A DNA stretch of 64,000 bases, taken from assembly GCF_045037415.1 (NCBI RefSeq), contig NZ_CP173438.1. One strand, given 5' to 3'. The translations under genes and the position numbers were made by a program. Positions 1-28,026 of the stretch are shown here, piece by piece. Below the pieces are notes generated by a model that saw only the letters and a program-made list of their open reading frames with translations, did not search any database and was not told where the DNA came from. Origin of the DNA: Escherichia coli (GTDB taxonomy: Bacteria; Pseudomonadota; Gammaproteobacteria; Enterobacterales; Enterobacteriaceae). Position 1 is the stretch's first letter, and every line of letters begins with the position of its first letter.

Positions 1-695
1 ATTACCGCCGCTTCCAGCGGATCGACATTGCGCGACACAATGCTTTGTAATGCGGTGGTGATATGTGCGGCAACCAGCACTGGATCGATGGCTTTGTGCG
101 GGATCGCACCGTGTCCGCCACAACCACGAACCGTAATATGGAACTGATCCATTGACGCCATCAGCGCCCCAGGCTGGAAGAAAAACTTGCCGACCGGCAA
201 ACCCGGCATGTTGTGCATCCCGAAAATGACATCGCAGGGGAAACGATCAAAAAGCCCCTCTTTAACCATGATCTCACCGCCGTTAATCATCTCTTCCGCT
301 GGCTGGAAGATAAGGCGTAACGTGCCGTTAAAACGGCGGGTTTCGGCAAAATAACGCGCGGCCCCCAGCAGTATGGTGGTATGCCCGTCATGCCCGCAGG
401 CGTGCATTAAACCAGGATGTTTACTGGCCCAGGGCTTGCCACTATTTTCATAAATCGGCAACGCATCCATATCCGCCCGCAGGCCAATACTTTTCTCTCC
501 GTCGCCCACTTTTAACGTGGCTACCACGCCGGTTGTCGCCAGCCCTTGCTCAACCTCATAGCCCCACTGGCGCAGCTTTTCCGCAACCAAAGCACTGGTT
601 TTAAATTCTTGTAATCCCAGCTCCGGGTTTTCGTGGATCTGATGGCGGATCTCGCGAAGTTCTTCCTCAAACCCACGAATATAGTGTTCGATCAT
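1..695 (-). CDS. M20D-family amidohydrolase (hippurate hydrolase/aminoacylase-like), N-terminal ~231 codons; 3' end lies beyond window start
   Basis: Manual reverse-strand translation from ATG at 693-695 gives MIEHYIRGFEEELREIRHQIHENPELGLQEFKTSALVAEKLRQWGYEVEQGLATTGVVATLKVGDGEKSIGL...; metal-binding signature MHACGHDGH encoded at 381..407. Absent from the ORF track because no stop lies inside the window. Confidence 0.7.
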   Translation of the reverse strand, partial: MIEHYIRGFEEELREIRHQIHENPELGLQEFKTSALVAEKLRQWGYEVEQGLATTGVVATLKVGDGEKSIGLRADMDALPIYENSGKPWASKHPGLMHACGHDGHTTILLGAARYFAETRRFNGTLRLIFQPAEEMINGGEIMVKEGLFDRFPCDVIFGMHNMPGLPVGKFFFQPGALMASMDQFHITVRGCGGHGAIPHKAIDPVLVAAHITTALQSIVSRNVDPLEAAV

Positions 696-1024
696 CGGCT
701 ATTCCTTTATTCACTTATAAACAGGCTAATTAACGGATTTTATTGATGGTATAAATACAAATAACCCATCAATATAAAATATTTATACATTTGTTTTATA
801 AGAAGATTTCATAAAGACAATAACAAAAAAGCACGCTTCGGCAAGATAAAACTATCAGCCATAAGAAAAAGCGATTAATAGTGAATAAATAAAATAAGAA
901 GGAGGAAGACAAAGCAAAGGCCGCTCACGATATAGCCAGATAAATGACGGGGATCAATTGGCTTACCCGCGATAAAATGTTACCATTCTGTTGCTTTTAT
1001 GTATAAGAACAGGTAAGCCCTACC

Positions 1025-2425
1025 ATGCCACATTCCTACGATTACGATGCCATAGTAATAGGTTCCGGCCCCGGCGGCGAAGGCGCTGCGATGGGCCTGG
1101 TTAAGCAAGGTGCGCGCGTCGCAGTTATCGAGCGTTATCAAAATGTTGGCGGCGGTTGCACCCACTGGGGCACCATCCCGTCGAAAGCTCTCCGTCACGC
1201 CGTCAGCCGCATTATAGAATTCAATCAAAACCCACTATACAGCGACCATTCCCGACTGCTCCGCTCTTCTTTTGCCGATATCCTTAACCATGCCGATAAC
1301 GTGATTAATCAACAAACGCGCATGCGTCAGGGATTTTACGAACGTAATCACTGTGAAATATTGCAGGGGAACGCTCGCTTTGTTGATGAGCATACGTTGG
1401 CGCTGGATTGCCCGGACGGCAGCGTCGAAACACTAACTGCTGAAAAATTTGTTATTGCCTGCGGTTCTCGTCCATATCATCCAACAGATGTTGATTTCAC
1501 CCATCCACGCATTTATGACAGCGACTCAATTCTTAGCATGCACCACGAACCGCGCCATGTACTTATTTACGGTGCTGGAGTGATCGGCTGTGAATATGCG
1601 TCGATCTTCCGCGGTATGGATGTAAAAGTGGATCTGATCAACACCCGCGATCGCCTGCTGGCATTTCTCGATCAAGAGATGTCAGATTCTCTCTCCTATC
1701 ACTTCTGGAACAGTGGCGTAGTGATTCGTCACAACGAAGAGTACGAGAAGATCGAAGGCTGTGATGACGGTGTGATCATGCATCTGAAGTCGGGTAAAAA
1801 ACTGAAAGCTGACTGTCTGCTCTATGCCAACGGTCGCACCGGTAATACCGATTCGCTGGCGTTACAGAACATTGGGCTGGAAACTGACAGTCGCGGACAG
1901 CTGAAGGTCAACAGCATGTATCAGACCGCACAGCCGCACGTTTACGCGGTGGGCGACGTGATTGGTTATCCGAGCCTGGCGTCGGCAGCCTATGACCAGG
2001 GGCGCATTGCCGCGCAGGCGCTGGTGAAAGGTGAAGCCACCGCACATCTGATTGAAGATATCCCTACCGGCATTTACACCATCCCGGAAATCAGCTCTGT
2101 AGGCAAAACCGAACAGCAGCTGACCGCGATGAAAGTGCCATATGAAGTAGGCCGCGCCCAGTTTAAACATCTGGCACGTGCACAAATCGTCGGCATGAAC
2201 GTGGGCACGCTGAAAATTTTGTTCCATCGGGAAACAAAAGAGATTCTGGGTATTCACTGCTTTGGCGAGCGCGCTGCCGAAATTATTCATATCGGTCAGG
2301 CGATTATGGAACAGAAAGGTGGCGGCAACACTATTGAGTACTTCGTCAACACCACCTTTAACTACCCGACGATGGCGGAAGCCTATCGGGTAGCTGCGCT
2401 AAATGGCTTAAACCGCCTGTTTTAA
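1025..2425 (+). CDS. sthA: soluble pyridine nucleotide transhydrogenase
   Basis: 466-aa [28 protein letters not shown]-binding N-terminus, matches remembered E. coli SthA length and sequence. Confidence 0.95.
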
Positions 2426-3339: not shown

Positions 3340-3420
3340 CGCCACGATAGTTCATGGCGATAGGTAGAATAGCAATGAACGATTATCCCTATCAAGCATT
3401 CTGACTGATAATTGCTCACA
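3340..3420. promoter_or_regulatory. oxyR/oxyS divergent promoter region with OxyR operator
   Basis: AT-rich dyad-containing sequence atagcaatgaacgattatccctatcaagcattctgactgataattgctcaca between the oxyR start and the oxyS 5' end; known arrangement in E. coli. Confidence 0.5.
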
Positions 3421-3535
3421 GAAACGGAGCGGCACCTCTTTTAACCCTTGAAGTCACAGCCCGTTTCGAGAGTTTCTCAGCTCGAATAACTAAAGCCAAC
3501 GTGAACTTTTGCGGATCTCCAGGATCCGCTTTTTT
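3421..3535 (+). ncRNA. oxyS: OxyS small regulatory RNA
   Basis: Sequence begins gaaacggagcggcacctcttttaacccttgaagtca and ends with hairpin gcggatctccaggatccgc plus T-tract (3511..3537); divergent from oxyR. Confidence 0.85.
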
Positions 3536-3591
3536 TTGCCATAAAAAAGCCCAGCGATAAGCCAGGCTCAAATTTATACATATAAATGTTC

Positions 3592-8420: not shown

Positions 8421-11072
8421 ATGAACGAACAATATTCCGCATTGCGTAGTAATGTCAGTATGCTCGGCAAAGTGCTGGGAGAAACCATCAAGGATGCGTT
8501 GGGAGAACACATTCTTGAACGCGTAGAAACTATCCGTAAGTTGTCCAAATCTTCACGCGCTGGCAATGATGCTAACCGCCAGGAGTTGCTCACCACCTTA
8601 CAAAATTTGTCGAACGACGAGCTGCTGCCCGTTGCGCGTGCGTTTAGTCAGTTTCTGAACCTGGCCAACACCGCTGAGCAATACCACAGCATTTCGCCGA
8701 AAGGCGAAGCTGCCAGCAACCCGGAAGTGATCGCCCGCACCCTGCGTAAACTGAAAAACCAGCCGGAACTGAGCGAAGACACCATCAAAAAAGCAGTGGA
8801 ATCGCTGTCGCTGGAACTGGTCCTCACGGCTCACCCAACCGAAATTACCCGTCGTACACTGATCCACAAAATGGTGGAAGTGAACGCCTGTTTAAAACAG
8901 CTCGATAACAAAGATATCGCCGACTACGAACACAACCAGCTGATGCGCCGCCTGCGCCAGTTGATCGCCCAGTCATGGCATACCGATGAAATCCGTAAAC
9001 TGCGCCCAAGCCCGGTAGATGAAGCCAAATGGGGCTTTGCCGTAGTAGAAAACAGCCTGTGGCAAGGCGTACCGAATTACCTGCGCGAACTGAACGAACA
9101 ACTGGAAGAGAACCTCGGCTACAAACTGCCCGTCGAATTTGTTCCGGTACGTTTTACCTCGTGGATGGGCGGTGACCGCGACGGCAATCCGAACGTCACT
9201 GCCGATATCACCCGCCACGTCCTGCTACTCAGCCGCTGGAAAGCCACCGATTTGTTCCTGAAAGATATTCAGGTTCTGGTTTCTGAACTGTCGATGGTTG
9301 AAGCCACCCCTGAACTGCTGGCACTGGTTGGCGAAGAGGGTGCCGCAGAACCGTATCGCTATCTGATGAAAAACCTGCGTTCTCGCCTGATGGCGACACA
9401 GGCATGGCTGGAAGCGCGCCTGAAAGGCGAAGAACTGCCAAAACCAGAAGGTCTGCTGACACAAAACGAAGAACTGTGGGAACCGCTCTACGCTTGCTAC
9501 CAGTCACTTCAGGCGTGTGGCATGGGTATTATCGCCAATGGCGATCTGCTCGACACCCTGCGCCGCGTGAAATGTTTCGGCGTACCGCTGGTGCGTATTG
9601 ATATCCGTCAGGAGAGCACCCGCCATACCGAAGCGCTGGGCGAGCTGACCCGCTACCTCGGTATCGGCGACTACGAGAGCTGGTCAGAAGCCGACAAACA
9701 GGCGTTCCTGATCCGCGAACTGAACTCCAAACGTCCGCTTCTACCGCGCAACTGGCAACCAAGCGCCGAAACGCGCGAAGTGCTCGATACCTGCCAGGTG
9801 ATTGCCGAAGCGCCGCAAGGCTCCATTGCCGCCTACGTGATCTCGATGGCGAAAACGCCGTCCGACGTGCTGGCTGTCCACCTGCTGCTGAAAGAAGCGG
9901 GTATCGGGTTTGCGATGCCGGTTGCTCCGCTGTTTGAAACCCTCGATGACCTGAACAACGCCAACGATGTCATGACCCAGCTGCTGAATATCGACTGGTA
10001 TCGCGGCCTGATTCAGGGCAAACAGATGGTGATGATTGGCTATTCCGACTCAGCAAAAGATGCGGGCGTGATGGCAGCTTCCTGGGCGCAATATCAGGCA
10101 CAGGATGCATTAATCAAAACCTGCGAAAAAGCGGGTATTGAGCTGACGTTGTTCCACGGTCGCGGCGGTTCCATTGGTCGCGGCGGCGCACCTGCCCATG
10201 CGGCGCTGCTGTCACAACCGCCAGGAAGCCTGAAAGGTGGCCTGCGCGTGACCGAACAGGGCGAGATGATCCGCTTTAAATATGGTCTGCCAGAAATCAC
10301 CGTCAGCAGCCTGTCGCTGTACACCGGGGCGATTCTGGAAGCCAACCTGCTGCCACCGCCTGAGCCGAAAGAGAGCTGGCGTCGCATTATGGATGAACTG
10401 TCAGTCATCTCCTGCGATCTCTACCGTGGCTACGTACGTGAAAACAAAGATTTTGTGCCTTACTTCCGCTCCGCTACGCCGGAACAAGAATTGGGTAAAC
10501 TGCCGTTGGGTTCACGTCCGGCGAAACGTCGCCCGACCGGCGGCGTCGAGTCGCTGCGCGCCATTCCGTGGATTTTTGCCTGGACGCAAAACCGCCTGAT
10601 GCTCCCCGCCTGGCTGGGTGCAGGTACGGCGCTGCAAAAAGTGGTCGAAGATGGCAAACAGAGCGAGCTGGAAGCCATGTGCCGCGATTGGCCATTCTTC
10701 TCGACGCGTCTCGGCATGCTGGAGATGGTCTTCGCCAAAGCAGACCTGTGGCTGGCAGAATACTATGACCAACGCCTGGTCGACAAAGCACTGTGGCCGT
10801 TAGGTAAAGAGTTACGCAATCTGCAAGAAGAAGACATCAAAGTGGTGCTGGCGATTGCCAACGATTCTCACCTGATGGCCGATCTGCCGTGGATTGCAGA
10901 GTCTATTCAGCTACGGAATATTTACACCGACCCGCTGAACGTATTGCAGGCCGAGTTGCTGCACCGCTCCCGCCAGGCAGAAAAAGAAGGCCATGAACCG
11001 GATCCTCGCGTCGAGCAGGCGTTAATGGTCACTATTGCCGGGATTGCGGCAGGTATGCGTAATACCGGCTAA
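8421..11072 (+). CDS. ppc: phosphoenolpyruvate carboxylase
   Basis: 883-aa [28 protein letters not shown]..., ends GMRNTG. Confidence 0.97.
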
Positions 11073-25517: not shown

Positions 25518-27752
<2,235 letters not shown>

Positions 27753-28026
27753 TTATAATTGAATTAATCCACGGATGCGATAGTTGAGATCTTACATATT
27801 GTTGGTTAAAGAGATGTAGATCAAATTGATCGTAATTAAGACTTTTTGATTATGTCCGATTTAGGACAAATGCTTTATAAAAAAGGGTTTTAGATTTGTA
27901 TCCTTCAAGTAATGAGGGAGAAAACAAGGCTGATAACCTTATTTTCCCGCCCTCATTTCGAGGCAGCATTTTGTGCTCTGTTTAAAATTTGTGAACACTG
28001 TGTGATTTTCACAAAAGGCACAATAC

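Follow-up and report, generated by a model that had tools for sequence, protein, structure and literature searches.

Among the described systems closest to the locus analyzed here, the abgR-abgABT operon of Escherichia coli K-12, which is cryptic and poorly expressed, serves the uptake and cleavage of p-aminobenzoyl-glutamate. Solved structures of amidohydrolase subfamily M20D comprise YxeP of Bacillus subtilis (1ysj), ILL2 of Arabidopsis (1xmb), the N-alpha-acyl-glutamine aminoacylase of Corynebacterium (6slf), and an M20 peptidase of Staphylococcus aureus (4ewt), enzymes whose substrates are N-acyl amino acids or related amides; to our knowledge, none of the four is encoded beside a transporter of the metabolite:H+ symporter (MHS) type. 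In Pseudomonas putida KT2440, a cluster composed of a LysR-type regulator (PP_2701), a major facilitator superfamily (MFS) transporter (PP_2703), and HipO (PP_2704) has been characterized, with measured hydrolysis of hippurate, weak activity on N-acetyl-L-alanine, and a promoter that answers to hippurate through the LysR-type regulator (bioRxiv 10.64898/2025.12.09.693157). Here we analyze a stretch of 64,000 nucleotides (the window) from E. coli contig NZ_CP173438.1 (assembly GCF_045037415.1), which begins inside an M20D amidohydrolase gene that forms, together with an MFS transporter gene, a two-gene islet between fabR and sthA. We consider it likely that this islet is old in Escherichia, that the K-12 lineage has lost it, and that it constitutes a 2.7-kb catabolic unit with a putative role in the use of N-acyl amino acids.

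The likeness of the islet to the KT2440 cluster lies in an M20D-type hydrolase gene that stands beside an MFS transporter gene, a comparison made by gene content. The KT2440 cluster has its own LysR-type regulator, whereas the Escherichia islet has none; such a regulator is present both in KT2440 and in the Burkholderia-type loci related to the Escherichia genes, and is divergent in the latter. With abgABT, the islet would share the import of an N-acylated amino acid and its cleavage by M20-family amidohydrolase subunits, whereas AbgT is not an MFS protein, the Abg hydrolase is composed of two subunits, and a LysR-type regulator is present. The relation between the two hydrolases is distant, the solved Abg-type structure 3io1 scoring 125 bits against the islet enzyme vs 218-244 bits for the other M20D structures. 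YxeP, ILL2, the Corynebacterium aminoacylase, and the S. aureus peptidase all align with the islet hydrolase over its full length and share its dimerization domain; because none of them is clearly the closest, they leave its substrate unfixed.

The locus has been described before and is an ordinary, catalogued element. CFT073 c4924-c4925 and Sakai ECs4892-ECs4893 (locus tags derived from oxyR = c4922 and murI = ECs4898, respectively) represent the same locus, with an M20 aminoacylase gene and a ‘citrate-proton symporter’ gene between sthA and fabR. The M20 gene adjoining sthA in CFT073 is C_RS23275 (old tag c4924), and the window gene is its orthologue as well as, by gene order, that of Sakai ECs4892. 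In one study, c4924-c4926 were catalogued as ‘SAC no. 14’ under the label ‘citrate metabolism’, which the B2 strains F11, 536, UTI89, and E2348 possess but K-12 and 14 further strains do not (PMC2831201); O157:H7 is scored there as lacking SAC no. 14, whereas the O157:H7 genomes analyzed here carry both genes. In another, ‘hipO’ (K01451) was associated with a uropathogenic clade (PMC4819403). The papers found hold no mention of the K-12 scar or the Escherichia albertii copy described below. Two observations may be new, namely the deletion scar of K-12, a 37-bp stump of the transporter gene that makes the ‘reference’ arrangement the derived one, and a spacer whose conservation across the genus far exceeds that of the surrounding synonymous sites.

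Many ST131-type (O25:H4) genomes match the first 1100 bases of the window at 100% identity, and one of these, SK1144, served as the reference for the DNA before the window start. The full gene order in SK1144 is sthA (plus strand), a 211-bp AT-rich spacer, the M20D gene (minus), a 42-bp gap, the MFS gene (minus), a 103-bp gap, fabR-yijD (minus), and trmA. The islet consists of two genes, both with intact reading frames in SK1144, and fabR lies directly beyond the transporter gene. The M20D gene is the first of the two-gene operon, and its remainder, together with the MFS gene, lies before the window start. Within the window, the 5′ part of this gene (codons 1-231 of 388) occupies positions 1-695 on the minus strand, where positions 3-695 translate without a stop into 231 residues beginning with MIEHYIRGF; these are the first 231 residues of a 388-aa protein annotated as ‘M20 aminoacylase family protein’ in the 100%-identical genomes. 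A Shine-Dalgarno-like AAGGAA, read from the sequence at positions 702-707 (minus strand), stands 6 nt before the ATG at 695-693.

The hydrolase can be assigned to peptidase family M20, subfamily D, with solid support from profile searches. It scores 358.3 bits against TIGR01891 ‘amidohydrolase’, passing the cut-off of 153.75 over model positions 1-363 of 366, and matches the Pfam families Peptidase_M20 (PF01546, 8e-44, residues 72-384) and M20_dimer (PF07687, 1.7e-12, residues 184-279). The MHACGHDGH motif, encoded at positions 378-407 on the minus strand, aligns residue for residue with the MHACGHD of solved M20D structures, in which the cysteine and histidine of this motif are metal ligands. 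In the alignments to 1ysj, 1xmb, 6slf, and 4ewt, the MHACGHD, QPAEE, GMH, and C-terminal H-x-P elements are all conserved.

In MG1655, the divergent genes sthA and fabR are separated by 276 bp according to the annotation. The alignment to K-12 breaks at positions 10204/10205 and 12906/12907 of locus L001, between which a 2702-bp segment comprising most of the MFS gene, the M20D gene, and the 211-bp spacer stands against 74 unrelated bases in K-12; K-12-like sequence resumes at window position 907, 118 bp before the sthA start codon. An earlier note on this DNA, made from the window alone, had recognized the divergent M20D gene with its MHACGHDGH signature, put the K-12 fabR-sthA distance at about 280 bp, and described K-12 gene order from sthA onward, all of which is borne out. 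It had also suspected an island cut by the window start. Of the checks that it proposed, extension upstream reaches fabR after two genes, and alignment to K-12 places the resumption at 907. As for the arrangement that the note had set against its own proposal, in which fabR would adjoin a hydrolase gene common to most E. coli, the transporter gene lies between the two, and the islet is carried by 27.8% of complete genomes.

The left junction indicates the direction of the change. Of the transporter gene, K-12 retains the terminal 35-37 bases with the stop codon, and a blastx search of the K-12 spacer against M20D, MFS, and LysR proteins returned exactly MFS residues 428-438 and nothing else. 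The tail encoded by this stump, YVKEPAKELQ followed by the stop, can be aligned to the native C-terminal ends of homologues of the Burkholderia type, whose pattern is [KE]-E-[TP]..[KR].L. before the stop and whose last residue falls at the same position. Because the K-12 spacer encodes the native C-terminal end of the transporter, K-12 carries a deletion scar, and by this comparison of sequences its arrangement is the derived state. One and the same junction is common to three divergent K-12-type alleles. The filler that separates the transporter stump from AGACAAAGC measures 74-75 bp and occurs in all K-12-type genomes (K-12 L002:2910-2983, reverse strand), at the site equivalent to the 906/907 junction of the window.

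Across 5426 complete E. coli genomes, the islet was found in 1507 (27.8%), each time as a single copy, and the scar in 3918 (~72%); a single genome had neither, and the two states together account for 5425 of the 5426. In each of the 1507 carriers, which include B2, O157:H7/E, and others, the match covers 80% or more of the transporter gene query. Grouped by percent identity to the ST131 allele over this query, 560 carriers reach at least 99% (ST131-like), 524 lie at 95-99% (other B2, with Nissle 1917, BEN2908, and an O18 strain), and 423 at 90-95% (O157:H7, O145, and others). Over the 2.8-kb islet query, the ST131-type allele of the window is 98.6% identical to UTI89-type B2 alleles and ~94% identical to that of O157. 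Two of the 1507 islet copies stand on plasmid-labelled records, which may be mislabelled replicons or real transfers, and E. coli CU568-3, an ST131 genome, has an IS1 insertion sequence inside the matched islet region.

The islet is also present beyond E. coli. In the E. albertii type strain, a 13-kb stretch is collinear with the window genome and includes the islet at the same place; the M20D gene stands at the sthA-fabR site in 10 of the 10 complete E. albertii genomes listed, with the transporter gene called in nine. Escherichia sp. E4694 carries an intact islet at the same site, and the synonymous divergence (dS) of its flanks to E. coli, 0.11-0.19, falls between the values within E. coli and those for E. 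albertii. When E. coli is compared with E. albertii, dS amounts to 0.21-0.65 in the islet and 0.28-0.52 in fabR/sthA. The ratio of nonsynonymous to synonymous divergence (dN/dS) is 0.02-0.05 for both islet genes, and the reading frames are intact in the five sequences translated (B2, O157, WP4, E4694, and E. albertii). In Salmonella enterica and Citrobacter koseri, the islet is absent and fabR and sthA are 198 bp apart; both also lack ~135 bp that K-12-type genomes keep, consisting of the stump, the filler, and short flanks. Because of the stump, the copies in E. albertii and E4694, and the empty sites of the outgroups, the history would be one of insertion in an Escherichia ancestor, followed by vertical descent and then by deletion.

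Individual E. albertii copies vary. The M20D gene of the type strain NBRC 107761 stops three codons early (…LVEA, stop, LQ, stop; L003:7156-7158), whereas the other E. albertii listed encode 388 aa. Two genomes have a transposase (rve) gene beside the M20D gene, at the usual position of sthA (L099:1-1050 and L104:1-1050), and the transporter gene was not called in a third (L100:2532-4000).

The transporter is a protein of 438 aa encoded on the minus strand and annotated in RefSeq as a ‘citrate-proton symporter’. The Pfam families recorded for it, Sugar_tr and MFS_1, support its membership in the MFS superfamily, and the protein resembles the MHS type without passing a curated family test. The nearest relatives of the islet genes outside Escherichia appear, from the matches obtained, to lie in Betaproteobacteria and Pseudomonas. 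Among the matches listed, the closest non-Escherichia hydrolases are from Silvimonas (63% identity) and from Burkholderiales, Pseudomonas, and Rhizobiales (47-58%); that other Enterobacteriaceae are missing among them is no evidence of absence, and the outgroups were reached via cluster members and exact-protein look-ups. The hydrolase gene is directly followed by a transporter homologue (36-45% identity) in 9 of 78 non-Escherichia loci, and in several such loci of the Burkholderia type a LysR-type regulator is encoded divergently upstream, whereas Escherichia has no cognate regulator. In the Pseudomonas loci read, the hydrolase is 52-53% and the transporter 36% identical, with other neighbours.

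The AT-rich spacer at positions 696-906, delimited by its composition and by the boundary at 906/907, is the predicted control region of the M20D-MFS operon, belongs to the islet, and is absent from K-12. Its guanine plus cytosine (GC) content of 27.0%, vs 52.3% for the whole window, ranks it lowest among all 211-bp stretches of the 64 kb; 211-bp windows of at most 27.5% GC make up 0.05% of all, and every one of them overlaps this site. The only other stretch below 32% GC lies at window positions 27732-27946 (minimum 31.8% over 211 bp). The spacer is 95-97% identical across ST131, CFT073, O157:H7, WP4, E4694, and E. albertii, ~7 positions differing between B2 and E. albertii, and is therefore more conserved than the synonymous sites of the adjacent genes (dS 0.2-0.6). 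Judged from this alignment, the constraint is greater than a simple promoter would need, which suggests a dense regulatory function. A candidate protein-binding site within it, at positions 738-777, is the inverted repeat TTTTATTGATGG / CCATCAATATAA, whose 12-nt arms (738-749 and 766-777, with 16 nt between) are 92% complementary and, apart from one base of the right arm, are kept throughout the six aligned lineages.

Published expression data bear on the same region. In CFT073, overexpression of tosR raised c4924 (‘putative hippuricase’) by a log2 fold change of 6.6 (~100-fold), and the supplement of that study lists, among the genes responsive to TosR overexpression, a 29-nt AT-rich motif upstream of c4924 with the value 78 (PMC5956150). 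A copy of this motif with one mismatch is present in the window at positions 774-802 (minus strand), with 78 nt between it and the start codon at 695. In a different study, Sakai ECs4893 was listed as O157-specific and rose 2.09-fold at a growth transition (PMC2241611). Of the marks of an H-NS-silenced region, the spacer shows AT-richness, de-repression upon TosR overproduction in CFT073, and the AT-rich motif of that paper, and because of the base composition and the TosR result we infer putative silencing by H-NS. No Rfam family matched the islet or the spacer at E-values up to 1, the window-wide Rfam scan returning only OxyS and four unrelated elements, and blastx against LysR proteins detected no LysR remnant in the Escherichia spacer.

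A sequence of events compatible with these observations can be proposed. Once Salmonella and Citrobacter had branched off, the unit would have been inserted into the short fabR-sthA spacer of an ancestor common to E. coli, E. albertii, and the cryptic Escherichia lineages; it would since have been inherited vertically under strong purifying selection, and would have been lost through a deletion that left one common junction, producing the allele now carried by ~72% of E. coli, including K-12. Where the operon is retained, the MFS protein may act as a proton symporter that brings in an anionic N-acylated amino acid, after which the cytoplasmic, metal-dependent M20D enzyme would cleave the amide bond, so that a carboxylic acid and a free amino acid become available as nitrogen or carbon source. 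Because no cognate regulator is present, expression of the operon is probably held close to zero by way of its AT-rich region, to which nucleoid proteins such as H-NS would bind, and it may be de-repressed by regulators that bind AT tracts, e.g., TosR of the PapB family. In the 103-bp gap, no convincing terminator was seen between the operon and fabR, and read-through into fabR-yijD upon induction is therefore conceivable. This gap, which follows the transporter stop, also contains the only strict sigma-70-like site near the islet, TTCACA-17-TATGTT, and two weak hairpins (L001:10095-10144), in DNA shared with K-12.

Several observations count against parts of this proposal. Regarding descent, the islet alleles within E. 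coli (B2, O157:H7, and WP4; L001:10170-12695 vs L082 and L083) differ by dS of 0.16-0.37 vs 0.04-0.08 for the flanks fabR/sthA, i.e., 2-5 times more, and simple vertical descent alone is thus insufficient; the excess suggests old allele lineages or less recombinational homogenization inside the islet. The Escherichia compared were E. coli, E. albertii, and E4694, with E. fergusonii left out. The K-12 filler gave scores within the range of shuffled controls when aligned locally, on both strands, with the whole islet of four lineages, and it has neither a counterpart in the Salmonella or C. koseri spacers nor a related protein by blastx. Regarding regulation, the H-NS high-affinity motif TCGATAAATT has one match with two mismatches in the spacer, without enrichment, a strict sigma-70 scan detected no promoter there, and the induction by TosR may be indirect. 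Regarding function, the order in KT2440 is MFS gene then hipO, the solved relatives at 218-244 bits (YxeP, IAA-amino acid hydrolase, and acyl-glutamine aminoacylase) differ in their substrates, and no enzymological or transport study of the pair was found in the literature searched. To these are added the scores against family models: the hydrolase falls short of the cut-off of every specific NCBIfam equivalog (336 vs 500 for CpsA and 322 vs 550 for DoeB2), and the transporter, whose top model is the metabolite/H+ symporter TIGR00883 (324.2 bits, with positions 1-392 of the 400 in the model covered), stays below the cut-off of 443.45 and reaches 287 bits vs 445 for the TcuC subfamily NF011656.

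These functional scores leave room, although rather little in our judgment, for a pair that acts on something other than an N-acyl amino acid, whether through uptake of citrate or another tricarboxylate beside an unrelated peptidase, as a dipeptide hydrolase or carboxypeptidase, or as a deacetylase (e.g., of N-acetyl-diaminobutyrate). The RefSeq product name and the ‘citrate metabolism’ label for c4924-c4926 in PMC2831201 speak for the first of these options, but both transporter scores lie under curated cut-offs, so that ‘citrate-proton symporter’ is unsupported as a specific function; the shortfall against TcuC marks the citrate name as an annotation transfer, and a hydrolase has no role in citrate use. 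The ‘citrate metabolism’ reading was rejected on the missed NCBIfam cut-offs. The remaining options draw on CpsA carboxypeptidase and DoeB2 deacetylase as the next-best NCBIfam matches, both of which fall far under their cut-offs, and on the promiscuity of M20D enzymes, HipO itself hydrolyzing N-acetyl-L-alanine. Since the coupling of hydrolase and transporter is tight and conserved in several phyla, the two would share one substrate. That this substrate is an N-acyl amino acid of some kind has, in our judgment, somewhat better than an even chance.

A far less probable alternative, which we regard as scarcely tenable, is the one to which the earlier note leaned: a recent, strain-specific insertion or replacement, an island of unseen extent, with the K-12 arrangement as ancestral. 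It accounts for the absence of the DNA from K-12, where sthA and fabR are only 276 bp apart, for the empty outgroups, for nearest outside homologues that are, among those listed, only 63% identical and betaproteobacterial, and for an AT-rich spacer of a kind common in foreign DNA. On this last point, the strong AT-richness that the note gave to positions 696-960 is confirmed (31% GC, including the lowest 211-bp stretch of the window), but only 696-906 belongs to the islet, the last 54 bases (907-960) being K-12-like sequence of 43% GC. Against such an origin, the unit comprises only two genes with fabR directly next to it; its GC content of 51% is not deviant; the annotation between fabR and sthA holds no integrase, transposase, or tRNA gene; and no flanking repeats are seen in the junction sequences as read, no repeat search having covered the whole islet. 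By annotation, junctions, and GC content, the locus does not qualify as a mobile genomic island. What decides the matter is that K-12 keeps the last 11 codons and the stop of the transporter gene together with the ~135 bp missing from Salmonella and C. koseri, and that E. albertii and E4694 hold the islet at the same site with dS like that of the flanks. The proposed event at the sthA-fabR boundary consequently survives in part: K-12 does lack 2702 bp, and the islet is an insertion relative to Salmonella and C. koseri, but K-12 is the derived state. Finally, a silent, decaying relic whose spacer matters only as the sthA upstream region is hardly to be believed either, for although it would suit the missing cognate regulator, the low basal expression suggested by the large rise on TosR overexpression, the loss from ~72% of E. 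coli at no obvious cost, the IS-disrupted copies, and the early stop in the E. albertii type strain, it conflicts with the low dN/dS of both genes at dS up to 0.65, the intact frames of all five translated sequences, the single copies matching most of the transporter query in all 1507 carriers, and a transcript that responds to conditions in two strains.

Outside the islet, positions 907-1024 (plus strand) form the K-12-like sthA upstream region, 99% identical to K-12 from 907 on, and presumably hold the sthA promoter. Across the aligned Escherichia lineages, no base varies in the 88 bp that precede the sthA ATG, and the proximal part of the region is also kept in Salmonella and C. koseri. The islet neighbour sthA itself, encoding the soluble pyridine nucleotide transhydrogenase, occupies positions 1025-2425 (plus strand), and from there the window follows the K-12 order of oxyR, argH, argB, argC, argE, and ppc. 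A second strain-variable two-gene islet is found nearby, between argH and oxyR, in CFT073 (L109:30451-33015) and some other E. coli (L086, L088, and L089), consisting of manD, the gene for D-mannonate dehydratase, and an MFS transporter gene. It is absent from the window, where the spacer at positions 3356-3591 holds only OxyS (3421-3530).

Returning to the islet as an old catabolic unit of Escherichia, the pair shows an association with B2 and uropathogenic strains, and urine is rich in hippurate. The names that connect the hydrolase with this compound (‘hippurate hydrolase’, ‘putative hippuricase’, and KEGG K01451) reach it only via annotation transfer; the homologues listed for the hydrolase are saturated by E. 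coli sequences at 99% identity or above and add nothing beyond such names. Hippurate (N-benzoylglycine) would nonetheless be the single most likely substrate, a tentative candidate whose own chance stays well short of even. A bolder possibility, which we hold to be doubtful, is that the islet serves the scavenging of hippurate or other N-acyl amino acids in host-adapted lineages (extraintestinal B2, O157:H7, and E. albertii), and that its unusually conserved spacer is a nucleoid-protein switch opened by adhesin regulators of the PapB family such as TosR.

For the biology of E. coli, the locus represents an accessory two-gene unit annotated in ~1500 complete genomes and no unexplored island; the value of the analysis lies in a corrected reading of it, and current understanding is not challenged. 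If the host-associated possibility were true, nutrient scavenging in urine or gut would be tied to adhesin expression, and the K-12-type deletion would set commensal laboratory strains apart from pathogenic E. coli by a genuine difference in metabolism.

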